The notes below the pieces were generated by a model. The model made no database searches. It saw only the letters and a list, made by a program, of their open reading frames with translations, and was not told the DNA's origin. A stretch of 62,513 nt of DNA, filler included. It is 4 parts of 4 records of this genome, joined end to end, with 100 filler letters (N's around TTAATTAATTAA, not from the genome) between each part and the next. Parts side by side here need not be neighbours in the genome. Positions count along the whole stretch, not along the records: positions 39,792 to 57,810 come from SRR20825010_91; 3 more parts are not named here. The stretch is one strand, 5' to 3'. Both the position numbers and the translations under genes were made by a program. Of this stretch, positions 37,163-56,240 are shown in pieces (within the stretch, counting starts at the first letter, position 1; each line of letters begins with the position of its first letter).

Positions 37163-37288
37163 GGTACTCCGCCGCGGTGTTGTTATTGGATAGAACGAAA
37201 TAGTGCGCGCACTGGCGCCAGCGTGAAGAGCAACAATAGGGAAGACGGCGCAAAGACACCCGGCCAATGCGCGACAGGAAATGGTTAA

Positions 37289-38506
37289 TCAGGGACAGGC
37301 TCGGGCCGTGGCGCTGGTGACTGCCGACCAGAATTCTACCCGGTTGCGGCCCTGCTGCTTGGCCTGGTACAGGGCTTCGTCCGCTCGGGACACCAGCTGG
37401 GATTCCGTTGTCTCCATGCCCGGAACAGCGACAACCACGCCAAAGCTGGCACTGACTGTCAGCGCAGTGCCATCGTCCAGAACGATGGGAGTGTCGTACA
37501 GTACCGCGCGACAGCGCTCCACCACATTCTTCGCACCCATCCGGCCGGTCGCGGGCAGCACCAACACAAACTCTTCGCCACCAATGCGGCCGATGCGATC
37601 GGTTTCCCGCAGGGTCTGGCGCAGCCGCTCCGCCACCCGCACCAGTACGGTATCCCCCGCAGCATGGCCATGGCGGTCATTGATCTGCTTGAAGTGATCC
37701 AGGTCCAGCACACACACCGACAGGTCTTCCCCGGCGCGCCGGGCCCGGGCAATTTCATGGGCAAACTGATCAAACAGGGCACGCCGGTTTGCCAGCCCGG
37801 TGAGCGGATCCTGCACCGCCATGGCCCGCACCTGGGCTTCACGGGATACCCAGCGGCGCAGCAGCAGGGACACCAGCGTCAGTACCGCCGTTACAAAAGG
37901 CACCGCAAAAGCAACGGTGCTGGCAATCCAGTAATAGGAAAGGGAATCCTTGGCTGTGGGGTCGGCACGGAAATACAACGCGTAAGTGTCATAACCGCTG
38001 GCAGACAGCCAGGCCAGCAACAACACCATCAGCGTGCCCACCGTGAAACCCCAGGCCACGGGCTGGAAGCCAAACAGGATGAATCCCACCAGGGGTGAGC
38101 CGAGCAGCACCATTCCCGTCATCGGGCTATACAGACCTAACATCAGGGCCAACAGCAGAAAGCTGAAGCCAAAAAACTGCACAAAGCAGTGCACAAAAAG
38201 CCGGGACTGGCGCCGTTTTTTACGCAACACGGCCGCCCAGGCAATCATCACCAGATAGCCGCTCACATTGAACAACAACACCCCGGTAAACTGCCGAGCC
38301 CCTGTGGGGGAAACATATTGCGCACCGAAGTCAGTGAAGAACGCGGTAACCAGGTGCCAGACCAGATAGAGAAGCATGTAGACAGACAGCAACACCGACA
38401 GCAACATGCATTTGTCGCTGTCACTCCAGTCGAGCAATCGGTAAATCTTCGGTGATCTCGAAGCGGCTTTTCGCATAAGCAACCGTGACCCAGTCCACAC
38501 ACCCAT
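37289..38506 (-). CDS. Membrane-bound diguanylate cyclase
   Basis: Multiple TM helices, DPLTGLANRR, DLDHFKQIND, RETD I-site, GGEEF, ADEALYQAK. Confidence 0.92.
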   Translation of the reverse strand: MGVWTGSRLLMRKAASRSPKIYRLLDWSDSDKCMLLSVLLSVYMLLYLVWHLVTAFFTDFGAQYVSPTGARQFTGVLLFNVSGYLVMIAWAAVLRKKRRQSRLFVHCFVQFFGFSFLLLALMLGLYSPMTGMVLLGSPLVGFILFGFQPVAWGFTVGTLMVLLLAWLSASGYDTYALYFRADPTAKDSLSYYWIASTVAFAVPFVTAVLTLVSLLLRRWVSREAQVRAMAVQDPLTGLANRRALFDQFAHEIARARRAGEDLSVCVLDLDHFKQINDRHGHAAGDTVLVRVAERLRQTLRETDRIGRIGGEEFVLVLPATGRMGAKNVVERCRAVLYDTPIVLDDGTALTVSASFGVVVAVPGMETTESQLVSRADEALYQAKQQGRNRVEFWSAVTSATARACP

Positions 38507-38715
38507 AACGGAATTATGTCACCCCGCGAGCCACCACGGGCCTCGCTGGTGCAGCCATTGCTACCAACGGTCGGAAACCGGCGATAATTTGATCAGGCTC
38601 ACGGCATACGAAGCGCTTTCGCGACAGCGCCGGATCAACATGCATTTTTCCCTTTACCTCAACCTGGGTTGAGGCCCTATTCTCCCTTTTCCTGCTGACG
38701 AACCTGGAGCCTGCC

Positions 38716-39531
38716 ATGCCCCTTGATATAGATGCCTATTGCCAACGTGTCGGTTATACCGGAGAACGCACACCCACCCTGGCTACGCTGCGCGCCCTGC
38801 AACAATGCCACCTGCTGCATATTGCTTTTGAAAACCTGAACCCTCTACTGGGCAAGCCTGTGCCACTGGATCTGGCCAGCCTGGAACGCAAGCTGGTGCA
38901 GCAAGGGCGGGGAGGCTACTGCTTTGAGAACAACCTGCTATTCATGGCTGTGCTCACGGAACTGGGTTTCACCGTGCGCGGGATTACCGCACGGGTCTAC
39001 TGGAACCAGCCCGAGGACGCGCAGCCACCACGCTCACATATGCTGTTGCTGGTGACCATCGACGATGAGGACCACCTGAGCGACGTGGGATTTGGCGGGA
39101 TGACTCCGACGGCCCCATTAAAACTGCACAACCCGGCAGCCCAGAGCACTCCGCTGGAGCATTTCCGTGTGCTTCCCGAGAACAATCATTACCGGATTGA
39201 GGTACAGCTGGGCAGCAGTTGGCGGCTGCTGTACCGGTTCGACCTGATGACGCAGTGGCCCATCGATTTCGACATGGCTAACTGGTATGTGGCCTGCCAC
39301 CCGGCGTCAAAATTCGTCAACAACCTGATTGCCGTACGCACCGACGTGGATCGCCGCCACACACTATTGAACGGGCTCTATACGATTCGCTACCCGGACG
39401 GACGCAGTGACAAGCAGGACATTACCGACCCGCAGGCGATGACTCGCCTGCTAGCCGATACCTTTCAGATCAATCTGCAAGGACTGGAGCAAGACCTGCA
39501 GACTACGCTGACCGATAAGACGCTGCTTTAA
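38716..39531 (+). CDS. Arylamine N-acetyltransferase
   Basis: AFENL, RGGYCFENN, SHMLL, DVGFG triad motifs. Confidence 0.92.
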   Translation: MPLDIDAYCQRVGYTGERTPTLATLRALQQCHLLHIAFENLNPLLGKPVPLDLASLERKLVQQGRGGYCFENNLLFMAVLTELGFTVRGITARVYWNQPEDAQPPRSHMLLLVTIDDEDHLSDVGFGGMTPTAPLKLHNPAAQSTPLEHFRVLPENNHYRIEVQLGSSWRLLYRFDLMTQWPIDFDMANWYVACHPASKFVNNLIAVRTDVDRRHTLLNGLYTIRYPDGRSDKQDITDPQAMTRLLADTFQINLQGLEQDLQTTLTDKTLL

Positions 39532-39578
39532 CCGGTGCCTTTCCCCCATGTTAGAACCGTACTGGTAAGGCGAATTTT

Positions 39579-39691
39579 GCAGGTCGGGTTAGCCGTAGCC
39601 GTAACCCGACATCTGCCCGAACCAATAGCGAAAACGGTTAATGTCGGATTACGCCAGTAGGCTCTCTGTGCCCTTGGGTAAATTCGACCTA
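39579..39691. repeat. Inverted pair of REP-like repeats (REPIN-like) at the contig end
   Basis: GCAGGTCGGGTTAGCCGTAGCCGTAACCCGACA (39579-39611) and an opposite-facing longer copy at 39642-39691. Confidence 0.78.
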
Positions 39692-39791
39692 NNNNNNNNN
39701 NNNNNNNNNNNNNNNNNNNNNNNNNNNNNNNNNNNTTAATTAATTAANNNNNNNNNNNNNNNNNNNNNNNNNNNNNNNNNNNNNNNNNNNN
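39692..39791. other. Artificial contig linker
   Basis: N44-TTAATTAATTAA-N44. Composition switches abruptly from GC-rich to AT-rich across it. Confidence 0.98.
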
Positions 39792-40113
39792 GTTTGGAGA
39801 TTTAATGGGAATGATGGGTAAATTAAAAGAAACCCAAGAAAAAGTAGCAGCCACAAAAAAAAGGTTAGACACTGTTTTAATTGATGAAGTTAGCAACGAC
39901 GGACTTTTAAAAGTTACACTTACTGCAAACCGAGAAATAAAAAGCATAGCAATTGATGACAGCCTATTAGAAGACAAAGAGCAATTGGAAGATTATTTGG
40001 TTTTAACACTAAATAAAGCCATTGAAAAAGCTTCAAAGATTCACGAAACTGAAGTTGCTGCTGTTGCAAAAGAAGGAATGCCCAACATTCCAGGAATGGA
40101 TATGTTTAAGTAA
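39792..40113 (+). CDS. YbaB/EbfC nucleoid-associated protein, start clipped
   Basis: (M)[41 protein letters not shown]. Confidence 0.88.
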
Positions 40114-40120
40114 ACCTACT

Positions 40121-40570
40121 TTATTTAAGAAATTTATTAATAAACTTAAAATGGTTTTGGGTATCGCGCAATGGGCTATACCCTTCCATTTCTCCCTTTT
40201 CCCTTCCTTTATGGTCTAAAAATAATAGTTTTGGGAAGACTTTTTTTGTATTGTATTTAGCAACCAACTCTTTGTTGTAAGCCATTTGTTCTTCAGAAAT
40301 AAGATCTATACGGCGTGGATAATCCACCAATACTAAAACCATATTGGCTGCCTTTTCAACAAACTCAGGGTTTTCAAAAAAATCTTCTTTTAGCATCTTG
40401 CATGGAGCACACCAATCACTTCCTGTGAAATACAGTAAAATTGGCTTATTTGAATCTTTAGCTATTTTTCGCGCTTCTTCTAAATTTGTTAACCAATTTA
40501 AATCACTCGTTTCCTGTGAAAAAGAAAAAAGTGAAAACATAAGAAAGAAACAAAAATGATAAAGTTTCAT
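40121..40570 (-). CDS. Exported thioredoxin-family protein
   Basis: Signal peptide, FTGSDWCAPCK, VDYPR. Confidence 0.88.
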   Translation of the reverse strand: MKLYHFCFFLMFSLFSFSQETSDLNWLTNLEEARKIAKDSNKPILLYFTGSDWCAPCKMLKEDFFENPEFVEKAANMVLVLVDYPRRIDLISEEQMAYNKELVAKYNTKKVFPKLLFLDHKGREKGEMEGYSPLRDTQNHFKFINKFLK

Positions 40571-40624
40571 AAGTATAAGATTGTATTTTTCTTGAATAGC
40601 ATAATTAATGCCAAAGGTGTTATT

Positions 40625-40656
40625 AAAAAACAAAATCCCCAAAAAGTATGGGGATT
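40625..40656 (-). terminator. Intrinsic terminator after the OmpA-domain gene
   Basis: AATCCCCA/TGGGGATT stem with a T-rich tail on the minus strand. Confidence 0.6.
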
Positions 40657-40680
40657 CTATTCAATTAACCTCAATATAAC

Positions 40681-41784
40681 CTAATTAATCAGCCTAAATT
40701 CAGTTCTTCTATTTACAGCGTGTTCGCGTTCCGTACATGAAACACCATCAGCACATCTATTTTTTAATCTATTCTCCCCGTAACCATTTGCTACAAGCAA
40801 ACTCGAGTTGATTCCATTTGATTGTAAATAAATTGCCACAGCCTGAGCTCTTCTTTCAGATAAATCTTGATTTGATGAGCTAGTACCTCTAGAATCTGTA
40901 TGCGAAGCTATTTCAAGTTTTACACCTGGATTTTGAGCAAGAACAGGCATTAAGCGAGTGTCAATCAAAGATTTTGCTTCTGCAGTTAGTGTTGCGCTTC
41001 CAAGATTCCAGTTTATTGGTAAGGCTTGATATTCTACCAAAGCACATTCTACTTCTCTCCAGCTTGTTAAACCGCCTTTGTCTTTTAACACCTCTTTTGA
41101 AACCGTTTTATATTCCGCAGCAATAAGCTCTTCAACTACTTGCGCGTCTTTCACCATAACCACTTTAGTTATTTCATCATAAACAGCAGGAATAATAACT
41201 TCTTCAACTCGAGCAGGCTCAATTACAACCTTTTTTGTATAAGAAGCATCTTTAGCCTCAATTGGGCTTTTATTTGTTGATGCATCATTTGCCAAACGGA
41301 TTACCGGCACCGTTGTGTACTCTGCTGGATATCCTTTATAACACCAGTAACGGCAATCGTCTGGATTAGAAGAGGCACAATCTGGTGCTGGTGAGCCAAG
41401 CTCCCATTGTGCAAAAGCAGGTTTTATTTCAATAGTTTCTGCATCGTTTGAAAAAGTTGCAGGATTCACGCTTAAAGTCGATGCACCTTGTTTTTTAACA
41501 TATGTTACTGTTTCTGTACCCCATTTTTCAGGAATTACAACAAGTTTTTTACCTTCTTCTTTCACCAAAACACGTTCCGTGACAGTCTCATATTGCGCAG
41601 GAATCGTCTTCAATTTTTTGTAGGCCGGCTTTGTCATAATCTGCACTGTTTCATTTACATAAACAGCTGGCGTTGTACAGCGCACATAGCACTTCCCAGG
41701 TTCTGGGTTTGCCGGTAAATCTTGTGCGTAAGTTAGGCTTGCAGTTGATATAAAAAACAAGCTAATACATAATTTTAATTTCAT
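40681..41784 (-). CDS. Secreted OmpA-domain protein with N-terminal 23-aa repeats
   Basis: Signal peptide, PAxY repeats, C-terminal SHTDSRG, NQDLSERRA, GYGE and NRRTEF motifs. Confidence 0.9.
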   Translation of the reverse strand: MKLKLCISLFFISTASLTYAQDLPANPEPGKCYVRCTTPAVYVNETVQIMTKPAYKKLKTIPAQYETVTERVLVKEEGKKLVVIPEKWGTETVTYVKKQGASTLSVNPATFSNDAETIEIKPAFAQWELGSPAPDCASSNPDDCRYWCYKGYPAEYTTVPVIRLANDASTNKSPIEAKDASYTKKVVIEPARVEEVIIPAVYDEITKVVMVKDAQVVEELIAAEYKTVSKEVLKDKGGLTSWREVECALVEYQALPINWNLGSATLTAEAKSLIDTRLMPVLAQNPGVKLEIASHTDSRGTSSSNQDLSERRAQAVAIYLQSNGINSSLLVANGYGENRLKNRCADGVSCTEREHAVNRRTEFRLIN

Positions 41785-41970
41785 ATAAATTGTGTTAAAT
41801 AATAATTAATAATGGCGTTATAACCACTTATTAGACCCCATAAATATCAACAAGTCACTCATTTAATTAATTATTTCTTATATTTAAAAAAATAGTTTCT
41901 AATCTTTTTTAATGAGAATCATTTTTCCGATATTTAAGCATTAATGATAAAAACCTAAAACAATAAACCT

Positions 41971-42291
41971 ATGTTTGAACTTAAAAAAAGCGGTGATAAG
42001 TTTCACTTTGTGTTAAAAGCTAGCAATGGTCAGGTAATCCTCTCAAGCCAGATGTATGCTTCAAAAGCCTCAGCAATGAATGGCATTGAGTCTGTTCAGA
42101 AAAACTGCGGAAAAGATGATAGTTTTGAATTAAAAACCGCAAAAAACGGAAAAATTCACTTCAATATTAAAGCTAGTAACGGACAAATTATTGGTAGTAG
42201 CCAAATGTATGCTGCTGAAAGTGGTGCTAAAAACGGTATAGAATCTGTTCGTAAAAATGCACCAGACGCTTCTGTAAAAGAAGTAGAATAA
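41971..42291 (+). CDS. YegP/DUF1508 family protein
   Basis: Tandem duplication FHFVLKASNGQVILSSQMY...NGIESV. Confidence 0.92.
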   Translation: MFELKKSGDKFHFVLKASNGQVILSSQMYASKASAMNGIESVQKNCGKDDSFELKTAKNGKIHFNIKASNGQIIGSSQMYAAESGAKNGIESVRKNAPDASVKEVE

Positions 42292-42313
42292 AACACAGAT
42301 TTTCTTTCCAATT

Positions 42314-42343
42314 AAAATCCTCGGAATTCCGGGGATTTTTTTT
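42314..42343 (+). terminator. Intrinsic terminator
   Basis: AAAATCCTCGG-AATT-CCGGGGATTTT followed by a T-run. Confidence 0.75.
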
Positions 42344-42381
42344 ATCTTATTTCCCTTTCAAAATTCAAATATTTTAATTCA

Positions 42382-42606
42382 ATGAGCATTTTAAACAATT
42401 GGCGTATTATAGTGCTACTCTGCCTTACATTAGGCCTAGCACCTTTCTTTCCTGAACCACATATCTTGGGAAAAATTAATTGGATAACTGGTGGAGCCAA
42501 TGGTATGAAAGCCGCAGATTGGTTTGATGTGTTGCTTCATGGCTTTCCATTTATTTTATTAGGTAGATTACTTATTATAAAATTGAACCTATTCAAAAAG
42601 AAATGA
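42382..42606 (+). CDS. Small hypothetical membrane protein
   Basis: Two hydrophobic segments, LGLAPFFPEPH and DWFDVLLHG motifs. Confidence 0.75.
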   Translation: MSILNNWRIIVLLCLTLGLAPFFPEPHILGKINWITGGANGMKAADWFDVLLHGFPFILLGRLLIIKLNLFKKK

Positions 42607-42691
42607 TTTCTAAAAAAAGGGTTTTGATAACAATTAAGCATTGTGAAACACGCCCGATTTCGCTATTTTTGTACCTCTAAAATTTAAACTA

Positions 42692-45106
42692 ATGCAAACA
42701 GACCCAAAGACCAACGGCGAAATTCACTTTGATGATTTTAAGGAAACTGTCCTAAATGATTATAAAATAGCTGTTACTAGCCGTGAATGTAGTTTGTTAG
42801 GTCGCCGTGAAGTACTTACCGGAAAAGCAAAATTTGGAATATTTGGTGATGGAAAAGAAGTGCCACAACTTGCTTGGGCCAAAGCTTTTAAGAATGGCGA
42901 TTGGAGAAGCGGTTACTACAGGGACCAAACATTTATGATGGCGATTGGCAAACTTACTATTGAACAGTTTTTTGCTGGCCTTTATGCACATACAGATATT
43001 AAGTCAGACCCAATGAGTGCTGGAAGGCAAATGGGTGGCCACTTTGCAACACACAGTCTAAACGAAGATGGTAGCTGGAAAAACCTTACTGCACAAAAAA
43101 ATAGTAGCGCAGATATATCACCTACCGCTGGGCAAATGCCTCGTTTATTGGGGTTGGCACAAGCTTCAAAAATATTTAGGAACGTAAAAGGGATTGAAAA
43201 TAAAACCAATTTCTCTATCAACGGAAATGAAGTTGCTTGGGGAACCATCGGTAATGCAAGTACCAGTGAAGGGCTTTTTTGGGAAACCATAAATGCCGCT
43301 GGAGTATTGCAAGTACCAATGGTTATGAGCGTTTGGGATGATGAATACGGAATTTCTGTTCACGCAAAATACCAAACTACTAAAGAAAATATCTCAGAAG
43401 TACTTAAAGGATTTCAACGTACTGAAGATGAAAATGGATATGAAATTATCCGTGTAAAAGGCTGGGATTATCCAGACCTTATTGAAGTTTATAGCCGTGC
43501 TTCACAAATAGCGCGAGAAGAACACGTACCTGTTTTAATTCACGTGCAACAACTAACACAACCGCAAGGTCACAGCACCAGTGGTTCGCACGAACGTTAT
43601 AAAAGCAAAGATCGTTTAGAGTGGGAAGCAAGTTACGACTGTAACGTAAAAATGCGTGAATGGATTATTGCAAGCGATATTGCTTCAGAAGAAACGCTTG
43701 CCGAAATAGAAAAAGCCATTAAAAAGCAAGTTCGTGATGGAAAAAAAGCAGCTTGGGAAGCCTTTCTTGCACCGCAAAAAAAGGAACAAGAAGAAGCTGT
43801 TCTTCTTTTAGGAAATCTAGCAGAAAATAGTTCAAATAAAAATTTCATTGAGAAATTAAAAAATGAACTTGCATCCGAAAAAGAACCTTTACGTAGAAAT
43901 ATTGCTGCCTCAGCACGAAAAGCCTTGCGTTATGTAGTAGGAGAAGATTCATCTGAAAAGAAACAATTGCAAGATTGGTTGACTAATTATTTCGATACTA
44001 TTCAACCAAAATATAGCTCACATCTTTATTCTGAAGCAAACGAAAATGCTAAAACCATACAAGAAGTTCTTCCTTCATACACTAACGATGCTGAAGAAGT
44101 TGATGGGCGTGTAATTATAAGAGATAACTTTGATGCTATTTTCAGCAAATATCCAGAAGCTTTAATTTTTGGAGAGGATGCAGGAGAAATTGGCGATGTA
44201 AACCAAGGTTTGGAAGGCATGCAGGAAAAATACGGAAAACTTAGAGTTGCCGATGCAGGAATTCGTGAAGCTACAATTTTAGGTCAAGGAATTGGGATGG
44301 CTATGCGTGGTTTACGCCCTATTGCAGAAATACAATACCTTGATTATATTTTATATTGCCTTCAAATAATGAGTGATGATTTGGTGACGGTACGCTACCG
44401 CACCAACGGCACACAGAAAGCGCCGTTGATTGTTAGAACGCGTGGCCACAGACTAGAAGGTATTTGGCATAGTGGCTCACAGATGGGTGGTTTAATTCAC
44501 CTTTTGCGAGGTATGTATTTACTCGTTCCAAGAAACATGACCAAAGCTGCAGGTTTTTACAATACTTTGCTTGAAACTGATGAACCAGCTCTCGTTGTTG
44601 AATGTTTAAATGGTTATCGTTTAAAGGAAAAAATGCCTAACAACTTAGGCGAGCTAAAAACTCCAATTGGTGTAGTAGAAACTATAAAAGAAGGAACAGA
44701 TATTACTTTGGTTTCCTACGGAAGTACGATTCGCATTGTTGAAGAAGCTGCAAAAGAGCTACTACAAGCTGGTATTAGTGCCGAAATTATTGATGTGCAG
44801 TCCCTGCTACCTTTAGATTTAAACCATGATATCGTTAAAAGTGTAGCAAAAACTAATAGACTTTTAGTTATTGATGAAGACGTTCCTGGTGGCGCTTCTG
44901 CATATATACTTCAAAATATCATAGATGTTCAAGGTGGTTACAAACATCTTGACAGCAAACCACAAACACTTGCAGCCAAAGAGCACCGACCTGCTTATGG
45001 CACAGATGGCGATTACTTTAGCAAGCCAAGTGTAGAAGACGTTTATGAAAAAGTATATGAAATTATGCACGAAGCAAATCCTTCGGGATTTCCAAAACTC
45101 AGATAA
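42692..45106 (+). CDS. 2-oxoacid (probably branched-chain) dehydrogenase E1, fused alpha+beta
   Basis: MSAGRQMGGHF, IGNASTSEG TPP motif, GHSTSG, FGED, GLRPIAEIQY, transketolase C-domain. Confidence 0.9.
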   Translation: MQTDPKTNGEIHFDDFKETVLNDYKIAVTSRECSLLGRREVLTGKAKFGIFGDGKEVPQLAWAKAFKNGDWRSGYYRDQTFMMAIGKLTIEQFFAGLYAHTDIKSDPMSAGRQMGGHFATHSLNEDGSWKNLTAQKNSSADISPTAGQMPRLLGLAQASKIFRNVKGIENKTNFSINGNEVAWGTIGNASTSEGLFWETINAAGVLQVPMVMSVWDDEYGISVHAKYQTTKENISEVLKGFQRTEDENGYEIIRVKGWDYPDLIEVYSRASQIAREEHVPVLIHVQQLTQPQGHSTSGSHERYKSKDRLEWEASYDCNVKMREWIIASDIASEETLAEIEKAIKKQVRDGKKAAWEAFLAPQKKEQEEAVLLLGNLAENSSNKNFIEKLKNELASEKEPLRRNIAASARKALRYVVGEDSSEKKQLQDWLTNYFDTIQPKYSSHLYSEANENAKTIQEVLPSYTNDAEEVDGRVIIRDNFDAIFSKYPEALIFGEDAGEIGDVNQGLEGMQEKYGKLRVADAGIREATILGQGIGMAMRGLRPIAEIQYLDYILYCLQIMSDDLVTVRYRTNGTQKAPLIVRTRGHRLEGIWHSGSQMGGLIHLLRGMYLLVPRNMTKAAGFYNTLLETDEPALVVECLNGYRLKEKMPNNLGELKTPIGVVETIKEGTDITLVSYGSTIRIVEEAAKELLQAGISAEIIDVQSLLPLDLNHDIVKSVAKTNRLLVIDEDVPGGASAYILQNIIDVQGGYKHLDSKPQTLAAKEHRPAYGTDGDYFSKPSVEDVYEKVYEIMHEANPSGFPKLR

Positions 45107-45157
45107 GTAGAATACATAATTCACACAACCTAAAATTATATATTATTTAAAAAATAC

Positions 45158-45189
45158 TTGGAAACCTTAATTTATTTATAGTAAATTAG
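45158..45189 (+). promoter_or_regulatory. Putative Bacteroidetes sigma70 promoter of the asnB leader
   Basis: TTG (45158-60), 21 nt spacer, TAAATTAG (45182-89), one mismatch to TAnnTTTG. Confidence 0.55.
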
Positions 45190-45215
45190 CAATTCAAATA
45201 AAAGAAAGCAAGTTT

Positions 45216-45257
45216 ATGTCATTTTTCAGCCTTAATAACAATAACCAGCTACCGTAA
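45216..45257 (+). CDS. Asn-rich leader peptide MSFFSLNNNNQLP
   Basis: ATG TCA TTT TTC AGC CTT AAT AAC AAT AAC CAG CTA CCG TAA, directly upstream of the attenuator and asnB. Confidence 0.82.
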   Translation: MSFFSLNNNNQLP

Positions 45258-45258
45258 C

Positions 45259-45312
45259 AAAAACTTGTCGCGATATATGGCCTGTCAAGTTTTTCTTGAC
45301 AGGCTTTTTTTT
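45259..45312 (+). terminator. Attenuator: antiterminator overlapping an intrinsic terminator
   Basis: Terminator GCCTGTCAAG-TTTTT-CTTGACAGGC-T8 (45280-45312). Antiterminator AAAAACTTG (45259-67) pairs with CAAGTTTTT (45286-94). Confidence 0.85.
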
Positions 45313-45380
45313 GGTTTCAACTTAACTGATAATTAAATGAAGCCTAAAGATTCTTAAAAAACAAACTTAAATTATAAAAT

Positions 45381-47048
45381 ATGTGTGGAATTGTATGTGC
45401 ATTCAAACTTAAAGAACCTGCGGAAGAACTCAGGGTTCAGGTATTAACAATGGCAAAAAACATCCGTCATCGCGGACCCGATTGGAGTGGAATTTTTAGT
45501 AATGAAAAAGCAATAATGGCACACGAACGGCTTGCTATTGTAGACCCTACATCTGGAAAACAACCCCTTATTAGCAGTGATGGCAACTTGGTTTTAGCCG
45601 CCAATGGTGAGATATACAACCATATGGAACTGCGGAAGAAATTAAAACATTACACCTTTCAAACAAAAAGTGATTGCGAAGTAATACTACCTTTATATAA
45701 AGAAAAAGGAGCTGATTTTTTAGATGAAATGAACGGCATCTTTGGTTTTGCGTTATATGATGTTGAAAACGACACATATTTTGTGGCGCGCGACCATATG
45801 GGAATCATCCCGCTTTATATTGGTTGGGACCAACACGGCACTTTTTATGTAGCTTCCGAATTAAAAGCGCTGGAAGGCATTTGCACCAAAATTGAGCTCT
45901 TCCCCCCTGGACATTATTTAGACAGCCGTGAAGGTGAATTGAAACGTTGGTACACACGCGATTGGATGGATTATAAAAATGTAAAAAACAATACTACTGA
46001 AATCGCTGAACTCCGCAAAGCATTAGAAGCCGCAGTGCATCGCCAACTCATGAGCGACGTGCCTTACGGCGTATTACTTTCTGGAGGACTTGATAGCAGT
46101 ATTACTTCTGCCATTGCAAAAAAATATGCCGAAAAACGTATTGAAAGTGAAGATACTGAAGGCGCTTGGTGGCCACAATTACACAGCTTTGCAATTGGAC
46201 TGGAAGGCAGTCCTGACCTTGTAGCTGCAAAAAAAGTAGCAACCCATTTAAAGACTATACATCATGAAATAAAATTCACTATACAGGAAGGCATAGATGC
46301 CATTCGTGATGTAATTTATCATTTAGAAACCTATGATATTACCACAATTCGTGCTAGCACTCCAATGTATTTAATGGCGCGTGCTATTAAAGCAATGGGA
46401 ATAAAAATGGTGCTTAGCGGCGAAGGTTCTGATGAAATTTTTGGTGGCTATCTTTACTTTCATAAAGCTCCAAATGCAGAAGAACTTCATAAAGAAACAG
46501 TACGTAAACTTGATAAATTACATATGTATGATTGCTTACGTGCCAACAAATCGCTTGCAAGTTGGGGTATTGAAGGACGCGTTCCCTTCTTAGACAAAGA
46601 ATTTATGGATGTTGCTATGCGCATCAACCCACAAGATAAAATGATTAATGGCGAGCGAATGGAAAAATGGATTTTACGAAAAGCTTTTGAAGATATGCTT
46701 CCCGAAAGCGTATGTTGGCGCCAAAAAGAGCAATTTAGTGACGGTGTGGGTTATAGCTGGATAGATACTTTAAAAGAAATGGTAAATGAAAAAGTAACTG
46801 ATGAGCAGTTAGCAAATGCAAAATATAAATTTCCATTGCAAACTCCTACCAGCAAGGAAGAGTTTTATTATCGAAGTATTTTCGCTGAACATTTTCCTAG
46901 CGATACTGCTGCGCTTTGTGTGCCTTCAGTTCCATCGGTGGCGTGTAGTAGCCCAATTGCATTAGAATGGGATGCAAGTTTTAAAAACATGAACGACCCG
47001 AGCGGACGAGCAGTACAACAGGTACATACAGATGCCTATGAGAAATGA
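45381..47048 (+). CDS. asnB: Asparagine synthase (glutamine-hydrolysing)
   Basis: MCGI Ntn start, RHRGPD, NGEIYNH, LLSGGLDSS, SGEGSDE, RVPFLD, WRQKEQFSDGVG. Confidence 0.96.
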   Translation: MCGIVCAFKLKEPAEELRVQVLTMAKNIRHRGPDWSGIFSNEKAIMAHERLAIVDPTSGKQPLISSDGNLVLAANGEIYNHMELRKKLKHYTFQTKSDCEVILPLYKEKGADFLDEMNGIFGFALYDVENDTYFVARDHMGIIPLYIGWDQHGTFYVASELKALEGICTKIELFPPGHYLDSREGELKRWYTRDWMDYKNVKNNTTEIAELRKALEAAVHRQLMSDVPYGVLLSGGLDSSITSAIAKKYAEKRIESEDTEGAWWPQLHSFAIGLEGSPDLVAAKKVATHLKTIHHEIKFTIQEGIDAIRDVIYHLETYDITTIRASTPMYLMARAIKAMGIKMVLSGEGSDEIFGGYLYFHKAPNAEELHKETVRKLDKLHMYDCLRANKSLASWGIEGRVPFLDKEFMDVAMRINPQDKMINGERMEKWILRKAFEDMLPESVCWRQKEQFSDGVGYSWIDTLKEMVNEKVTDEQLANAKYKFPLQTPTSKEEFYYRSIFAEHFPSDTAALCVPSVPSVACSSPIALEWDASFKNMNDPSGRAVQQVHTDAYEK

Positions 47049-47119
47049 GCGGTATTTTAAAGAATTATTAAAAAAATTAATTTCTTAGAAAAACCACTTT
47101 AAATCAATATTAATTTTTT

Positions 47120-47160
47120 CAGAAGACATCAAAAAAAACTAATTTCATTGATGTCTTCTG
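47120..47160. terminator. Hairpin between convergent asnB and menB
   Basis: 13-bp stem CAGAAGACATCAA/TTGATGTCTTCTG. Confidence 0.6.
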
Positions 47161-47204
47161 TATTAAAACTCAAAAAGAATACTAAAAGCAACTAAGTATT
47201 TATT

Positions 47205-48044
47205 TTATGGTAACCACTTTTTATCAAAATTAGGTTTTCTTTTTTCTAGAAAAGCATCGCGACCTTCTTTTGCTTCGTCCGTCATATAGGCAAGTCGTGT
47301 TGCTTCTCCTGCAAATACTTGTTGCCCCACCATACCGTCATCAGTAAGGTTCATTGCAAACTTCAACATTTTTATAGATGTAGGTGATTTTGCGAGAATC
47401 TCCTGAGCCCATTCGTAAGCCGTATCTTCAAGTTTATCATGAGGGATTACGGCGTTTACCATCCCCATTTCATAAGCTTCTTGTGCAGAATAATTTCTAC
47501 CAAGGAAAAAGATTTCGCGAGCTCGCTTCTGCCCTACCATTTTGGCTAGATATGCACTTCCGTAACCGCCATCAAAACTAGTAACATCGGCATCTGTTTG
47601 TTTAAAAATTGCGTGTTCCTTACTTGCTAAAGTCAAATCGCAAACCACATGCAAACTATGGCCGCCACCTACTGCCCATCCTGGAACCACACAAATAACG
47701 GCTTTCGGCATAAAACGTATTAATCGTTGCACATCTAAAATATTTAACCGGTGATAACCATCATCCCCCACATATCCTTGATGGCCTCGCGCTTTTTGAT
47801 CGCCACCACTACAAAAACTATAAATTCCATCTTTTGTGGAAGGCCCTTCAGCGGAAAGTAAAACCACGCCAACAGAGGTATCTTCTTGGGCATTATGAAA
47901 AGCATCTAGTAATTCGGCTGTAGTTTTAGGACGAAATGCATTACGCACATCAGGCCTGTTAAAAGCAATTCTAGCAACGCCATCGCATTTTTTGTATGTT
48001 ATATCTGTATATTCTTTGACAGTTTTCCAATTGATTGAAGACAT
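47205..48044 (-). CDS. menB: 1,4-dihydroxy-2-naphthoyl-CoA synthase
   Basis: VRNAFRP, FCSGGDQ, GGGHSLHVVCD, SFDGGYGS, EGRDAFLEKR. Confidence 0.95.
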   Translation of the reverse strand: MSSINWKTVKEYTDITYKKCDGVARIAFNRPDVRNAFRPKTTAELLDAFHNAQEDTSVGVVLLSAEGPSTKDGIYSFCSGGDQKARGHQGYVGDDGYHRLNILDVQRLIRFMPKAVICVVPGWAVGGGHSLHVVCDLTLASKEHAIFKQTDADVTSFDGGYGSAYLAKMVGQKRAREIFFLGRNYSAQEAYEMGMVNAVIPHDKLEDTAYEWAQEILAKSPTSIKMLKFAMNLTDDGMVGQQVFAGEATRLAYMTDEAKEGRDAFLEKRKPNFDKKWLP

Positions 48045-48147
48045 AATTGTTATTTTTGTTTTCAAAGATAGAAGATATTGTTTAGTATTATTTTCTATTT
48101 CTTTTGAAATAATACTTCAGATAAACAATAATATTAAAAAATAACCC

Positions 48148-49266
48148 ATGCGCAGACTTCTTTTTTTACTCGCAACACTTTTTACAATAACGATTTCCGC
48201 ACAGGAAGCATACAAATTTACAACTGTTACTGACCTTGAGGCAACGCCAGTAATTAGCCAAGGAATTACAGGCACTTGCTGGAGTTTTAGTAGCACTTCT
48301 TTTTTAGAAAGTGAAATTATCCGCCTTACTGGAAAGAAAATTGATCTAAGTGAAATGTACCAAGTGCGAAATACCTATCCTTTAAAAGCTGAAAATTTTA
48401 TTATGCGCCAAGGTAAATCACAGTTTAGTGAAGGTGGTTTAGCACATGATGTGATGAATTCTGTAGCTAAAAACGGATTGGTTCCAGAAGAAGCTTTTAG
48501 TGGTCTTTTCGCAGGGGAAACAGTATACAATCACGCCGAAATGGTTGCGGTTTTGGAGGCGATGCTAAAAACATATATTGATAATCCTGGAAGAAAATTG
48601 AGCCCGAAATGGAGAACTGCAATTGATGCTGTTTTAGATATTTATTTAGGTAAAAACGTGTCCAGTTTTACATATGAAGGTAAACAATATACGCCTGAAT
48701 CATTTCTAAAAATGACTAAAATTGAGCCAGCAGACTATGTAAATATTACAAGTTTTACTCATGTGCCATTTTATTCACAATTTATCTTGAACATTCCAGA
48801 CAATTGGAGTAATGGTAGTTTTTATAATGTTCCTTTAAACGAAATGATGGCTACGATAGACAATGCGCTTGAAAAAGGTTTTACTATAGAATTAGATTGT
48901 GATGTAAGTGAAAAAACATTTTCATCAAAAGATGGTGTTGCAGTTATTCCAGAAAACGCTGAGAATACTATAAAAGCATTGCAAGGTGTTTATCCAGAAA
49001 AAACAATTACCCAAGAGTATCGCCAAAAAGAGTTTGAAAATTACGACACTACAGATGACCATTTAATGCATATTACAGGGATGCTTCAAGACCAAAATGG
49101 CACAAAATACTATAAGGTAAAAAATAGTTGGGGTACAGATGAAACACGTGTTGCCAACGGTGGTTATGTATATTTTAGTGAAGCTTATATGCGTTTAAAA
49201 GCTATTAGTATTACGGTTCATAAAGATGCATTGCCAAAAAACACAGCTAATAAATTAAACTTATAA
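48148..49266 (+). CDS. Secreted C1B cysteine aminopeptidase (PepC/bleomycin hydrolase-like)
   Basis: QGITGTCWSFS, TDDHLMHI, VKNSWG. Confidence 0.92.
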   Translation: MRRLLFLLATLFTITISAQEAYKFTTVTDLEATPVISQGITGTCWSFSSTSFLESEIIRLTGKKIDLSEMYQVRNTYPLKAENFIMRQGKSQFSEGGLAHDVMNSVAKNGLVPEEAFSGLFAGETVYNHAEMVAVLEAMLKTYIDNPGRKLSPKWRTAIDAVLDIYLGKNVSSFTYEGKQYTPESFLKMTKIEPADYVNITSFTHVPFYSQFILNIPDNWSNGSFYNVPLNEMMATIDNALEKGFTIELDCDVSEKTFSSKDGVAVIPENAENTIKALQGVYPEKTITQEYRQKEFENYDTTDDHLMHITGMLQDQNGTKYYKVKNSWGTDETRVANGGYVYFSEAYMRLKAISITVHKDALPKNTANKLNL

Positions 49267-49331
49267 TAAACAACTTTCAACTACGCACTGGCTATAAAAA
49301 AGTTGGCGTAAATTTTGATATATTTGCAACA

Positions 49332-49814
49332 ATGAAAAAGTTGTTATTTCTTCTTTTATTTTTTCCACTGATAGCATCTGCGCAGTTTGATTTTGAGACC
49401 AATAAACTTAAATTGAATTTTGCTATTTTGCCTGAAGTTGAAAGTTTAATGAGTACATCGCTATCCTCAGATACAGGTTTTTTAGCAAATAATAAAAACA
49501 AACTACCTTCTTTTAAACTTAGTAAGGACAACTATCGGGAACCTGTAAGTATGTTTGATGCAATGGCAACTACTGAGAATTATGTAAAATCTGACATTGA
49601 AATCTCACTAGACCCTAAAGAATACGGTATTTTTGGAGGTAACAGTACATATTCTGCAGATGCCTCAACCTCAGTTAAAAATATTTCGTATAAAGAATCT
49701 AGAGGGTATTTAAGACCAGAGCTTATGCCTTATAACTATGGGTTTTATCCTCGAAATAACAGAAGAAGTGGTTTCTATGTTGGTTATGGTATGTACCAAA
49801 CACCATCACAGTAA
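49332..49814 (+). CDS. Secreted hypothetical protein
   Basis: Sec signal peptide (ASA-Q). TATATTTG promoter box 5 nt upstream. Confidence 0.75.
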   Translation: MKKLLFLLLFFPLIASAQFDFETNKLKLNFAILPEVESLMSTSLSSDTGFLANNKNKLPSFKLSKDNYREPVSMFDAMATTENYVKSDIEISLDPKEYGIFGGNSTYSADASTSVKNISYKESRGYLRPELMPYNYGFYPRNNRRSGFYVGYGMYQTPSQ

Positions 49815-50636
49815 TTCAATACCGTCTTCCTTAATTGTAATTTGCTTGTCTTTGTAAAGCGTGCCAATTGCTTTTTTAAAGCTTTTCTTACTCATCCCCA
49901 AAAGATTTTTTATTGAATCTGGATCAGATTTATCATGCAATGGTAAAAAACCTCCTGCAGCTTCCAATTCTTCACGAATAAAGTTAGCATTTGGCTCTAT
50001 ACTCTTGTAACCAGGAGTTTGAAGAACAATATCAATTTTATTATCAGGGCGAATATTTTTAATAAACGCCTTCATTCTGTCTCCAGTACGAATATCTTCA
50101 AATATATTTTCAATGTATATAAGCCCCTTGTGAACACCGTTTACAATTACGTTGGCTCCTTTTTCGGTAAGATGCGTTACTAAAATATCTACTTCTTCAA
50201 AAGGTTCAACTGTTAGTGTTTCATTTTGTAGGAAATGATTTGTTTTACTCGAACCAACAAGACGGTTTGTTTTATCATCTATATAAAGGTAAACTATATA
50301 CCAATTTCCTTTTTTCATAGGACGCGCCTGTTCTTTAAAAGGAACAAACAACTGTTTTTCCAATCCCCAATCCATAAATGCACCGTATTCAGTAACATCA
50401 CTACAATGGAGGTATCCGAAAGTATTTAATTGTAAGAAAGGATCTAAAGTTGTAGCAATAGGCCGTTCTTCATTATCAAGGTATATAAATACAGAAATTG
50501 AATCACCAATTTCATAAGCTTCTGGCTTGTATTTATGTGGTAAAAGCACCACATTTTCTTCATCATCACCTAAATATAAACCCGGTTCGGTTTCCCGAAG
50601 GATTTCTAATGTATTGTATTCGCCCAGTTTTATCAT
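49806..50636 (-). CDS. CvfB-family S1 RNA-binding protein
   Basis: GEYNTL, GAFMDWGLEKQLFVP, DKSDP, MSKKSFKKAIGTLYK. Confidence 0.9.
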   Translation of the reverse strand: MIKLGEYNTLEILRETEPGLYLGDDEENVVLLPHKYKPEAYEIGDSISVFIYLDNEERPIATTLDPFLQLNTFGYLHCSDVTEYGAFMDWGLEKQLFVPFKEQARPMKKGNWYIVYLYIDDKTNRLVGSSKTNHFLQNETLTVEPFEEVDILVTHLTEKGANVIVNGVHKGLIYIENIFEDIRTGDRMKAFIKNIRPDNKIDIVLQTPGYKSIEPNANFIREELEAAGGFLPLHDKSDPDSIKNLLGMSKKSFKKAIGTLYKDKQITIKEDGIELL

Positions 50637-50720
50637 AGTTGCAAAGGTACTGCATATTCCTTAAAAAAATGTGGAACTTGTGCATAGAGATGAAATATAA
50701 AATGTAAATTACACTTTATA

Positions 50721-51131
50721 ATGGTAAGTCAATTTCCGCATAATCTTCCACCAGAATTCCAATTAAAAAAGGTATTAGACACCGAAATTGGTAAGCTATA
50801 TTTTTATGGATACATTGTTGTATTTGAAGTAAATGAAGGAGTTATGCTCTCATATAAAACTGGATTTTCAATTTTAATAAAAAGCTTAAGTATTCTAAGA
50901 GCTCAACCCTGGGTGTATATCTCAAACAGGGTTAACTCCTACTCAGTCAATCCAATAGATTATAAATACTTTAATAAAGTGCCAACTTTAAAAGCAATGG
51001 GAATTGTTAATTACAATGAAGTGGGACATCAAAATGCTAACTTAGAAGCTAAATTTTGTGAAAAACCATTTAAAATTTTCAATGAACTTCCTGAAGCCAT
51101 AAACTGGGGGAAAGATTTCCTTATAAAATGA
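50721..51131 (+). CDS. Hypothetical protein (STAS/SEC14-like, Flavobacteriaceae)
   Basis: YISNRVNSYSVNP motif, C-terminal FNELPEAINW. Confidence 0.7.
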   Translation: MVSQFPHNLPPEFQLKKVLDTEIGKLYFYGYIVVFEVNEGVMLSYKTGFSILIKSLSILRAQPWVYISNRVNSYSVNPIDYKYFNKVPTLKAMGIVNYNEVGHQNANLEAKFCEKPFKIFNELPEAINWGKDFLIK

Positions 51132-52782
51132 ATTTGAAATAATCAAGCAATACTTTATCATTCACCGTCGCTGGGGTGAAGATTTCCAATAATTTTCTTC
51201 CACCGTTTCCATCAAAAAAACTTTTTAATGTTTTCTCCAAATCTTCAATTGTGTGGGAATTCATATATTCAAAACCATACATTTTAGCAATATGGGTGGC
51301 ACTTAAATTATGTTTCGTTTCAAAATAAGTATCAAATAGTTTGGAGTCTTTTTCACCGGGAAGAATTCTAAAAATACCCCCACCACCATTATTCACAACA
51401 ATTATTTTAAAATCATTCGGAATATAATTGTTCCAAAGTGCATTGCTATCATAGAAAAAGCTAAGATCACCCGTTAAAAAAACTGTAGAAAGCTTTGATG
51501 CATAACCTGCCCCAATTGCGGTACTCATGCTTCCATCAATTCCACTAGTTCCACGATTACAGAATACTTCAGCAGAAGAATGTATATTAAAAAGTTGTGC
51601 GTAGCGAATGGTAGCACTATTACTTAATTGTAACTGAATGTTTTGTGGAAGTTGCTGAAAAATTTCACAAAAAACCCTAAAGTCTGAATATGGAATTTCA
51701 TTTATATACGCCTCATGACGTTTTAATCGATGCTCTTTAACCTTGAGCCAAGTGTTTTGGTAGTCACTATTTAATGCTAGTGTTTTCGGAAGAAATTCAG
51801 TGAAAAAACTATTTATAGCTAATTTAAAATGTTGATTTAGTACAAAAAAAGTATCGTAAGCTTTTTTGAAATCTACATGCCAATGCTCCTTTGGAGGATA
51901 CGTTCGTAAAAAAGCTTTTATCTTTTTTGAAACCACCATTCCGCCAAAAGTGAGTAAAATTTCTGGTTGAAGTTTTTTAAATTCTTCAGCTGTTAATGGT
52001 GCAATCAACTGATCTATAGCTGAAATAAAATTATTATTATTAAGGTTTGAAGTTGTTTCGGTAAGCACCAAAATACTTTTATCTTCTGCAAGTTGTTTTA
52101 TAAAACGAGCCTCCAAACTATTGGGTGGAAGCGTGCCAACAAGTATCATTTTTTTAGTGCACTTGTTCCACTTTTCAATAAAAGGAATTAAATCTAGATT
52201 AAAAGTTTCAGCTATCCGTGGCGCTACATTTTGAGGCCAAACTAACTGCTCCTCAACTGTTTGGTATAGCGGTTCTGTAAAAGGAATATTAATATGCACT
52301 GGCCCCTTAAGTTCTATTGCAGTATTAAGCGCAACGTTTATTTCGGTTTCATTATGTATCTGAAACTCATTTCCTTCCTTACAATTGGCGTTATAAAGAA
52401 TATGGTTTTCAAAAACATTTTCTTGTCTAATTGTTTGTCCGTCACCAATATCAATAAAATTAGCTGGTCTATCTGCCGAAATAACCACTAGTGGAATATC
52501 GCTATAAAATGCTTCAGAAACAGCAGGATAATAATTTAACAATGCAGAGCCTGAAGTACAAACAACAGCAACTGGTTTGTTTAATTGTTGTGCCATTCTT
52601 AAGGCAAAAAAAGCAGCACAACGTTCATCAACGATGCTAAAACACTTAAAATCATTATGCGCGCCGAAACCAATAGTAAGCGGTGCATTTCGTGAACCAG
52701 GAGATATAACTATATGTTCTATATGCTTATCCAAACATAGTTGAACAAGCGTTTGTGAAAGAATTTTATTTGAAAATTTCAT
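51121..52782 (-). CDS. menD: SEPHCHC synthase
   Basis: ISPGSRNAPL, VDERCAAF, CTSGSALLN, SADRP, NRGTSGIDG, GDLSFFYD, NNGGGGIF. Confidence 0.95.
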   Translation of the reverse strand: MKFSNKILSQTLVQLCLDKHIEHIVISPGSRNAPLTIGFGAHNDFKCFSIVDERCAAFFALRMAQQLNKPVAVVCTSGSALLNYYPAVSEAFYSDIPLVVISADRPANFIDIGDGQTIRQENVFENHILYNANCKEGNEFQIHNETEINVALNTAIELKGPVHINIPFTEPLYQTVEEQLVWPQNVAPRIAETFNLDLIPFIEKWNKCTKKMILVGTLPPNSLEARFIKQLAEDKSILVLTETTSNLNNNNFISAIDQLIAPLTAEEFKKLQPEILLTFGGMVVSKKIKAFLRTYPPKEHWHVDFKKAYDTFFVLNQHFKLAINSFFTEFLPKTLALNSDYQNTWLKVKEHRLKRHEAYINEIPYSDFRVFCEIFQQLPQNIQLQLSNSATIRYAQLFNIHSSAEVFCNRGTSGIDGSMSTAIGAGYASKLSTVFLTGDLSFFYDSNALWNNYIPNDFKIIVVNNGGGGIFRILPGEKDSKLFDTYFETKHNLSATHIAKMYGFEYMNSHTIEDLEKTLKSFFDGNGGRKLLEIFTPATVNDKVLLDYFKFIL

Positions 52783-52813
52783 GCGGTGCAAAGGTACAAA
52801 GACGCTAAAAATA

Positions 52814-53881
52814 TTACAGCATAGGCTGAAGTACTTGTAGCATTGTTTGCATTTTATTTTGTGTTTCTTCCCATTCCTCGATGGATTGGGAATCGCGTGT
52901 TATACCACCTCCGGCAAAAACACGTGCTATTTTATCTTCAATCTTCATACAACGAAGGTTTACCATTAATAAAGTAGAGGCGCCGTCATTTTCTATTGGC
53001 CCAATAAAACCCGTGTAAAACTCTCTATTATAACCTTCATTTTCATTTAAAAACTCTTTTGCAAATTTTTTAGGTGTGCCACAAACAGCAGGAGTTGGAT
53101 GAAGTGCAGTTGTAATAGATGTTAAAGTAGCTTTATTGGTTTTTAGTATTCCAGTGATATCGGTTCGTAAATGCAGTAGTTGCCCAGCGCGATGTGTATA
53201 TGGATTTGAAACCTTTAAAACAGAAGTAACTTTCTGTAAGCTAGTTGTTATTGAATCGGTTACCAATTGCTGTTCATCTTGCTCTTTTTGCCCCCAAGCG
53301 GTGTATGATTTATTTTTAAAAATTTGCGTACCAGCCAATGCCATAGTTTTGAATGAATTATTATCAATTTCAACTAATGTTTCGGGCGTTGCACCACACC
53401 ACAGCCCAGTATTTGGATGATACCAAATATATTTAAAAGCTGATGGATAAACAGAGAATAATTGTTTTATAAGTTTTTCAAGCGAAAAATTTTCTACTTC
53501 AAAGTCTTTAAAGCGAGAGAGCACTATCTTTTCGGCATTCTTCTTTTTTATTGTTTCAATTGCTTTATCAAGAAGCTTAACATATTTATTACGCTCCTTA
53601 ATATCTTTTTGTATTTCAACGGAATTTACTTTTTTTTCTTCAATTGGTATTTGTGTAATAAGTAGTTCTGAGTTTTTTTCAGGAATGTAAAATGCTACAT
53701 CTTTATAATCAAAAGGTGCTAAAATAAAGCCATTTTCAGAAAGTTTTTCAACCGTATGTACTGTATTATCTTCTTGCAAAAAGAATTTAACATGCTCACT
53801 TTGAGGCATAGAAAAAATTACAAATGGCAATTTTTTAGCATAATGCTTCGAAACTTTTTCGATAACCAACTTATAATCCAT
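52814..53881 (-). CDS. menF: Isochorismate synthase
   Basis: KIVLSR, GATPETL, TMALAGT, LHPTPAVCG, VNLRCM, AGGGIT. Adjacent to menD. Confidence 0.88.
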   Translation of the reverse strand: MDYKLVIEKVSKHYAKKLPFVIFSMPQSEHVKFFLQEDNTVHTVEKLSENGFILAPFDYKDVAFYIPEKNSELLITQIPIEEKKVNSVEIQKDIKERNKYVKLLDKAIETIKKKNAEKIVLSRFKDFEVENFSLEKLIKQLFSVYPSAFKYIWYHPNTGLWCGATPETLVEIDNNSFKTMALAGTQIFKNKSYTAWGQKEQDEQQLVTDSITTSLQKVTSVLKVSNPYTHRAGQLLHLRTDITGILKTNKATLTSITTALHPTPAVCGTPKKFAKEFLNENEGYNREFYTGFIGPIENDGASTLLMVNLRCMKIEDKIARVFAGGGITRDSQSIEEWEETQNKMQTMLQVLQPML

Positions 53882-54306: not shown

Positions 54307-54351
54307 CGTATTAATTTACATTTGTAAAAATACAAAATTGAACCCAACAAA

Positions 54352-54999: not shown

Positions 55000-55097
55000 C
55001 GATTTTATTAACACACTGATAGTTTTCTTTTTAAGCTGAAGTAATTGTTTCGAACAGAGATTAGTTATACATTCTTTATCACTTTTTAACTACATTT

Positions 55098-56093: not shown

Positions 56094-56181
56094 GTAAAAT
56101 ATACTGCTATTATATGTTTAAGTAATTGAAAGCCCCTAAAAAGTTAAAGTTCATTTACAGAAGGGTATTCATTTTTGAAAT

Positions 56182-56219
56182 AAAAAAAAACCGCAATCCA
56201 TTAAGGTTGCGGTTTTTTT
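56182..56219. terminator. Bidirectional intrinsic terminator (dnaK)
   Basis: A9-CCGCAATC...GGTTGCGG-T7. Confidence 0.8.
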
Positions 56220-56240
56220 ACATTAAATATATTATAAAAC

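Follow-up and report, generated by a model that had tools for sequence, protein, structure and literature searches.

A candidate asparagine-codon leader-peptide attenuator upstream of asnB in a cluster of Flavobacteriaceae

The classical ribosome-mediated attenuators of the Proteobacteria precede the trp, his, phe, thr, leu and ilv operons of E. coli and Salmonella. Other controls are familiar for the asparagine (Asn) genes, namely activation of asnA by AsnC in E. coli and T-box leaders in front of the asn genes of Firmicutes. In the Bacteroidota, a transcriptome study of Flavobacterium psychrophilum reported strong indications of leader-peptide attenuation in front of operons for amino-acid biosynthesis (PMC9723704). 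The element described here comes from the same bacterial family, and lies upstream of asnB, the gene for the glutamine-hydrolysing asparagine synthase B, in a stretch of 62,513 nucleotides (nt) which we call the window and along which all positions are counted. An earlier note on this DNA had proposed an Asn-codon attenuator with competing 1:2, 2:3 and 3:4 pairings. Our analysis supports that proposal at the level of sequence: the leader is very probably a ribosome-mediated transcription attenuator that couples transcription of asnB to the charging of tRNA-Asn.

The leader contains an upstream open reading frame (uORF) of 13 codons, with four Asn codons followed by Gln, exactly where the earlier note had placed it (Table 1). 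Downstream is a perfect, G+C-rich 10-bp stem (45280-45289 with 45295-45304) with a TTTTT loop (45290-45294) and a run of eight T residues. This hairpin was found again by an independent terminator scan, which called the stem as 11 pairs (45279-45305). Starting just beyond the stop codon, AAAAACTTG is the exact complement of CAAGTTTTT, and the resulting antiterminator helix is mutually exclusive with the terminator, since it uses the terminator loop together with the upper four base pairs of the stem. The heptamer CAAGTTT (45209-45215) directly precedes the ATG. The scan reported six terminator-like sites in the region covered, where 2.1 were expected from shuffles; the arrangement goes beyond chance because it is conserved across loci, not on the strength of this single sequence.

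Table 1. Features of the asnB leader, its surroundings and the window.
Feature	Position	Strand	Remarks
Promoter-like pair, Bacteroidetes type	45158-45189	+	TTG 45158-45160, 21-nt spacer, TAAATTAG 45182-45189
Region 1, 5' strand of helix P1 (predicted anti-antiterminator)	45209-45219	+	pairs with 45257-45267
Leader ORF, 13 codons + TAA, encodes MSFFSLNNNNQLP	45216-45257	+	ATG 45216, TAA 45255-45257
Control codons AAT AAC AAT AAC (four consecutive Asn)	45234-45245	+	followed by CAG
Local hairpin across the stop codon, 45253-45260 with 45265-45272	45253-45272	+	RNAalifold core, unprompted
Region 2, AAAAACTTG, antiterminator 5' strand	45259-45267	+	begins 2 nt past the stop codon
Conserved 12-nt spacer, TCGCGATATATG	45268-45279	+	alignment columns 100-115
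Intrinsic terminator, T8 at 45305-45312	45279-45312	+	sequence and independent terminator scan
Region 3, CAAGTTTTT	45286-45294	+	top of terminator left arm and loop
Region 4	right arm of terminator	+	
asnB, glutamine-hydrolysing asparagine synthase B	45381-47048	+	NF006949 equivalog
menB	47205-48065	convergent to asnB	ORF map
Linkers (N/TTAATTAATTAA)	22621-22720, 39692-39791, 57811-57910		

Homologous leaders were collected and, after removal of duplicates, 31 distinct sequences, all of them directly upstream of asnB, were aligned; column numbers below refer to this alignment. The start ATG is invariant and the stop codon in frame in every one. The ORFs are 12-19 codons long with 4-10 Asn codons each, so that Asn accounts for 216 of 489 sense codons (44%; 155 AAT and 61 AAC), and for 4 of 13 in the window leader. 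Asn runs are longer or shorter by whole codons only, and within them the sole substitution is the exchange of T and C in third position, AAT against AAC. Lys codons occur six times among the 31 leaders and never inside a run. An Asn codon is found at position -4 from the stop in 31/31 leaders, and in 30 of them it is the end of the main run, L039 having a single Asn there. The last residue of the peptide is Pro in 24 leaders and Thr in 7, and residues outside the Asn run vary freely. Sensing of glutamine was considered and rejected; the CAG after the Asn run is peculiar to the window leader and is not conserved.

Both competing helices are conserved in the alignment. Cells at the terminator columns can pair in 98.2% of cases, compared with 17-54% in controls in which the partner was slid along the alignment, and RNAalifold predicts this helix unprompted. 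The antiterminator, which the earlier note had described as a perfect 9-bp alternative pairing, is exact in the window and 99.6% paired across the alignment (slid controls, 27-67%). Covarying stems, suggested earlier as something to look for in orthologous leaders, are seen in both: 5/11 terminator pairs have changed on both sides, and one antiterminator pair, columns 92-130, is A-U in 16 leaders, G-C in 12 and G-U in 3, with no mismatch. Column 130 sits in the terminator loop, and its covariation is therefore explained by the antiterminator only.

Two further helices involve region 2, and each of them excludes the antiterminator. In the first, P1, CAAGTTT together with the UG of the start codon and the next U would pair with 45257-45267, giving a predicted helix that closes around the entire leader ORF and hides the AUG. 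Pairing is possible in 81.5% of cells at the columns concerned (20-33 with 86-99) and in 35-45% with a slid partner, and the computed energy is -4.9 kcal/mol. The second is the local hairpin across the stop codon (88.5% paired). Its columns 86-104 are G-C in 28 leaders and U-A in three: a synonymous change of CCG to CCT in L039, L121 and L138 is matched by C to A on the opposite strand of the hairpin. Both P1 and this hairpin may serve as holders of region 2, to judge from the modelled pairings, and the hairpin is possibly a pause hairpin. The spacer that follows region 2 occurs in two subtypes, TCGCGATAT-like and TACCCTATA-like, and these go together with the state, A-U or G-C, of the antiterminator columns 92-130; the spacer may perhaps be a pause site.

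On these grounds the leader can be pictured to work as follows. Transcription would begin about 20 nt ahead of the leader ATG. A ribosome extends, at its leading edge, some 12-13 nt past the first base of its A-site codon. When asparagine is plentiful, the ribosome would pass the four Asn codons, reach the TAA and cover region 2; region 3 would then pair with region 4, the terminator would form, and transcription would end at the T8 tract, 68 nt before asnB. When charged Asn-tRNA is scarce, the ribosome would stall on an Asn codon with its leading edge reaching at most to about the stop codon. Region 2 would thus be exposed and could pair with CAAGTTTTT once this has been transcribed, blocking the terminator and allowing RNA polymerase to read into asnB. 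If the leader is not translated at all, region 2 would be held by P1, by the stop-codon hairpin or by both, and because of this sequestration termination would be the default state. The predicted circuit is that low asparagine leads to stalling, stalling to antitermination, and antitermination to more AsnB.

Both conformers, whose folding the earlier note had recommended, were examined with the ribosome represented by a mask. Nascent RNA extending to 45295 and masked to 45256, as with a ribosome at the last Asn codon, folded into the antiterminator (-9.1 kcal/mol); masked to 45268, as with a ribosome at the stop codon, it had essentially no fold. The start of region 2 so soon after the stop codon and the fixed distance between the last Asn and the stop fit this masking geometry for a footprint of the size given above. 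We infer the geometry from general footprint and toeprint sizes, and the translation of the leader, the kinetic competition between helices and the response to asparagine from sequence.

A different view of the same alignment is that of a structured RNA switch sensing a protein, a tRNA or a small molecule, with the open frame as a by-product of an AAT-rich spacer. Such a switch is improbable. It would give a place to the conserved non-coding spacer and its two subtypes, which the ribosome model does not cover, to the compensatory pair in the hairpin over the stop codon, and to the final sense codon, which may be kept for RNA pairing rather than for the peptide (CCT covaries with A in column 104). 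It leaves without explanation an ATG that is always in frame with the Asn run, changes in run length that go by whole codons, third positions restricted to T and C with no Lys codon in the runs, and a distance from last Asn to stop that is fixed at 3 codons. Neither T-box nor any other Rfam family matches, and once the uORF is set aside only some 60 nt remain, little space for a ligand pocket.

The distribution of the leader was studied in several sets of genomes. Eighty asnB loci from named genomes were compared, and a terminator-like hairpin was present within 200 nt upstream of asnB in 8 of them. In seven of these eight (L029, L030, L031, L034, L036, L039 and L060) an Asn-rich, ATG-initiated ORF stands directly before the hairpin; the eighth locus, L075, has no Asn frame, and its hairpin is of 20 bp. 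Neither hairpin nor Asn uORF was found in the remaining 72 loci, three of which have less than 200 nt of upstream sequence. The Asn leader was thus not found in 73 loci of the set, those of Flavobacterium included, nor in 36 of the 37 asnB loci assessed at class level. The sequence after the leader stop is almost invariant, and a search pattern built on this post-stop motif around AAAAACTTG occurred once per genome in 5/5 leader-bearing genomes and matched 28 of 401 sampled Flavobacteriaceae genomes. Twenty-six of the 28 matches follow an Asn-rich uORF and lie 78-185 nt before an asnB start reading MCGIVCAF...; the other two are due to chance. The leader is therefore present in 26/401 of the sampled genomes, the specificity of the search coming from the genomic context and not from the pattern alone.

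A covariance model made from the alignment gave the window leader 109.6 bits. Among the 73 leaderless loci its best score was 31.8 bits, followed by L048 with 31.5 bits, and among 37 class-level asnB upstream regions 20.2 bits. On reading, the L048 hit was rejected as a cryptic leader; it is the terminator of the upstream gene. Besides the window, 30 loci carry the leader, and its hosts form an Aequorivita/Luteirhabdus/Ulvibacter/Patiriisocius-type cluster. The absence of Asn-rich uORFs from orthologous leaders had been set beforehand as a refutation of the attenuator; what we found was the 31 leaders of this one Flavobacteriaceae cluster.

These data bear on the suggestion that the hairpin merely terminates transcription of the upstream gene, or of an independent small RNA, with the Asn-rich ORF as an AT-rich coincidence, which we regard as very improbable. 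The gene upstream of the leader encodes an E1 dehydrogenase (42692-45106, + strand), and the scan detected no other terminator-like site between it and asnB; AAT-rich tracts are moreover common in DNA of 35% G+C. Across loci, however, the upstream neighbour varies both in identity and in strand (- in L029, + elsewhere) and the leader always adjoins asnB, whereas 72 asnB loci of similar composition possess neither the terminator nor the Asn uORF. A coincidence would also give no reason for the complementarity of the antiterminator and its covarying pair.

In a tree of AsnB proteins, from which L126 was left out as too short a protein fragment, all 30 leader rows fell into one cluster of 35 rows. 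The five non-leader rows within it, L033, L035, L037 (Hymenobacteraceae), L048 and L076, form a subclade of their own (support 98), and in all five the AsnB match begins at GTG. The leader is absent from L033, L037, L048 and L076, and L035 has only 39 nt of upstream sequence, at a contig end; among the five, the upstream sequence itself was inspected in L033 and L048. The distribution fits one gain of the leader followed by one loss or transfer, and the GTG-start subclade suggests that asnB was transferred without its leader or that the leader was lost.

The gene following the leader is a full-length match to the NF006949 equivalog, as expected from the earlier assignment of asnB, with its start at 45381. 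Residues 1-553 of 555 are matched with 933.1 bits (cut-off 499), and the protein is 92% identical to one from Aequorivita aurantiaca. The gene asnB, the presumed target of the regulation, is monocistronic. That the short ORF might instead specify a peptide with a function of its own, such as the precursor for a modifying enzyme related to AsnB, as in lasso-peptide clusters, is the least probable of the explanations considered: AsnB homologues do act as lasso-peptide cyclases, the papers found for asparagine synthetase together with leader peptide were mostly on lasso peptides, and there is a weak match of the N-terminal domain to the lasso cyclase model NF033535, but that match scores 163 bits (cut-off 525) against 933 for the AsnB equivalog, a strong terminator separates the two frames, the peptide sequence outside the Asn run is not conserved, and no protease or maturation gene is nearby, the next gene being the convergent menB.

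Several results weigh against the attenuator and have to be set beside the evidence for it. The antiterminator is short, A-U rich and far weaker than the terminator (-5.5 against -17.5 kcal/mol computed), and folding of the full-length RNA always favours the terminator; the antiterminator must therefore win kinetically, before the right arm has been transcribed. Its covariation consists of one column pair and one wobble column. When the changes were placed on the AsnB tree (30 leaders), each column pair gave 1-2 independent contrasts on well-supported branches, and 6, 3 and 5 for columns 92-130, 86-104 and 120-146, respectively, if unsupported branches are counted. The partner column in these contrasts always moved the same way or stayed unchanged, and a sign test on so few cannot reach significance. 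From the sequences, the covariation of the antiterminator and of the other helices could stem from few events. For P1 it is weak: 23/500 shuffles had at least as many cells changed on both sides as the real alignment, 26/500 reached its covariation score, and P1 competes with the stop-codon hairpin for region 2. CAAGTTT, which the earlier note saw as able to sequester the antiterminator strand, is at the stated position, conserved and largely able to pair, and may have that role, alone or beside the local hairpin. The two-subtype spacer is only partly explained, via that same hairpin. In the pattern search, a reversed control pattern gave 21 matches compared with 28 for the real one.

The promoter belongs among these points. 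The earlier note had seen a promoter-like motif just upstream of the leader, and a Bacteroidetes-style pair is indeed there, judged by what we take to be the consensus of that phylum. Under a strict definition (TTTG-N17-23-TAnnTTTG with at most one mismatch) the pair is found at the same place in only 9/31 leaders (shuffles: mean 0.32, maximum 2), and the window fails it, having CTTG and not TTTG. A sigma-70 scan found no promoter on the + strand at the leader.

The attenuator remains by far the better account of the locus, and its logic can be related to the remaining gene content. AsnRS (TIGR00457) scored above cut-off in 5/5 leader-bearing genomes tested; therefore the charging of tRNA-Asn in them relies on free asparagine and not on tRNA-dependent transamidation. 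No regulator gene adjoining asnB was found. Many leaderless Flavobacteriaceae have a divergent ORF of about 179 amino acids roughly 210-280 nt upstream of asnB (L038, L043, L058, L072 and about 30 others of the 80-locus set). As a transcription factor it was rejected, since Pfam identifies it as a DUF2911 protein in 4/4 loci tested. Two leaderless, Flavobacterium-type loci, L092 and L097, have in common an inverted repeat, TAGTTTnAATATGAAACTA, about 80-100 nt upstream of asnB, which by its sequence looks like an operator for a DNA-binding regulator.

Other leader-like elements were seen in front of asnB. L139 (genome G443) and L140 (G491), from two related genomes of another lineage of Bacteroidia, have a longer Asn-rich uORF some 60-150 nt upstream of asnB. 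One peptide has 27 amino acids, 7 of them Asn, and the other 28, of which 10 are Asn; beyond this the two show no resemblance, and the uORF is unrelated to the Flavobacteriaceae leader. In both loci a strong, G+C-rich hairpin without a U tract comes next, ending some 13-20 nt ahead of the asnB ATG. From sequence, L139 and L140 may represent a second, independent class of Asn leader. No copies beyond these two were found in family and order searches around G443, and no uORF of this type among 75 assessable metagenome asnB loci whose AsnB is 74-79% identical to that of G443; five of the 75 have short, weakly Asn-containing ORFs without a hairpin. In some Flavobacterium (L075, L146 and L147) a 20-bp hairpin with a T run, about 72-115 nt upstream of asnB and without an Asn-rich ORF, could be a repeat, or a leader element of another kind. 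Finally, in a very AT-rich 2.6-Mb genome (G214, L163) the asnB match contains two internal stops (TGA and TAA), and a 16-codon ORF with 5 Asn lies 30-81 nt upstream of it, without a terminator.

The window itself consists of four pieces, 1-22620, 22721-39691, 39792-57810 and 57911-62513, joined by N/TTAATTAATTAA linkers. The leader and asnB are on the third, which has 18,019 bp and 35% G+C and is syntenic with two Aequorivita-type genomes, G032 and G362, at 72-87% DNA identity; this bears out, for that piece, the earlier description of a Flavobacteriaceae-like contig. Pieces 1 and 2 have about 59% G+C, and pieces 3 and 4 are Flavobacteriaceae-like with 35% and 30%. Piece 1 is 97-98% identical to genome G001 over nearly its full length (1-1292 and 1364-22620), and no long high-identity match to G001 was found for piece 2. 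The assembly mixes at least two organisms. Neither an AsnB equivalog nor a DNA match to 44000-48200 was detected in G001 or its genus, because G001 matches the high-G+C pieces only of a mixed assembly.

Bacteroidota initiate translation largely without Shine-Dalgarno pairing. It is conceivable, though we hold it doubtful as a whole, that the leader is the first Asn-specific attenuator and a lineage-specific one, adapted to such a phylum. With the AUG buried by P1, the signal would be readable only for a ribosome loading co-transcriptionally, ahead of the synthesis of region 2, and the kinetic window would be tighter than in the enterobacterial attenuators. The stop-codon hairpin and the conserved ATAT spacer after it may be a pause element that synchronises RNA polymerase with the ribosome, and the Bacteroidota may have evolved Asn-codon leaders on more than one occasion, if L139 and L140 are taken into account.

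The earlier note knew of no characterised Asn attenuator, and our searches of Rfam 15 and of full-text literature agree with this. No Rfam 15 family, the leader families and T-box included, reached its gathering score in the window; in a permissive scan of 44800-45700 the best matches were to unrelated sRNA or L20-leader models, with 23-26 bits, thresholds of 47-59 and E-values of 0.02-0.04. An asparagine leader-peptide attenuator was not found described in the full-text literature, a scope that leaves aside subscription-only papers and supplementary tables. The main text of the F. psychrophilum study contains neither 'asparagine' nor 'asnB', and the operon list in its supplement may include an asn leader (PMC9723704). 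As far as its text answers to term searches, the survey of Naville and Gautheret (2010; PMC2965389) lacks the word 'asparagine' and has one word starting with 'asn', in a passage that was not returned; a term search of PMC7366714 likewise found no asparagine leader-peptide attenuator.

The known leader-peptide attenuators cover a handful of amino acids, to which the asnB leader would add asparagine as signal and asnB as target; a textbook case of transcription coupled to translation would gain both an amino acid and a phylum. At about 115 nt it is a compact test case in Flavobacteriaceae, where initiation and transcription-translation coupling are poorly understood. The 31-member alignment, with its terminator, antiterminator and control codons defined, is usable directly as an RNA family, and the leader could act as a natural sensor of Asn-tRNA charging. 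The short ORF is better annotated as a leader peptide than as a hypothetical protein.

The earlier note had likened the locus to the trp, his, thr, leu and phe attenuators, and those structural traits of the class that can be read from sequence, namely a short ORF, cognate codons, a terminator, an exclusive antiterminator and the masking geometry, are all found in the asnB leader. As in the classical attenuators, the short ORF is rich in codons for the amino acid that the downstream gene serves to make, an intrinsic terminator stands between leader and structural gene, the exclusive antiterminator has its 5' strand just past the leader stop, few codons separate the control codons from the stop, and termination is predicted as the default without leader translation. 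The asnB leader departs from them in being specific for asparagine with a single target gene, and neither in sequence nor by Rfam model does it resemble the trp, his, phe, thr, leu or ilv leaders. Its region 1 is situated at the 5' end of the ORF, taking in the start codon, and its 1:2 helix consequently encloses the ORF and has no overlap with the control codons; it has a second, local hairpin over the stop codon, and its antiterminator is short and A-U rich. With AsnC and the T-box leaders it shares the outcome, more capacity for asparagine synthesis when asparagine or charged tRNA-Asn is low. It differs from them in the proposed sensor, which would be the translating ribosome and not a protein or an uncharged tRNA bound by RNA.

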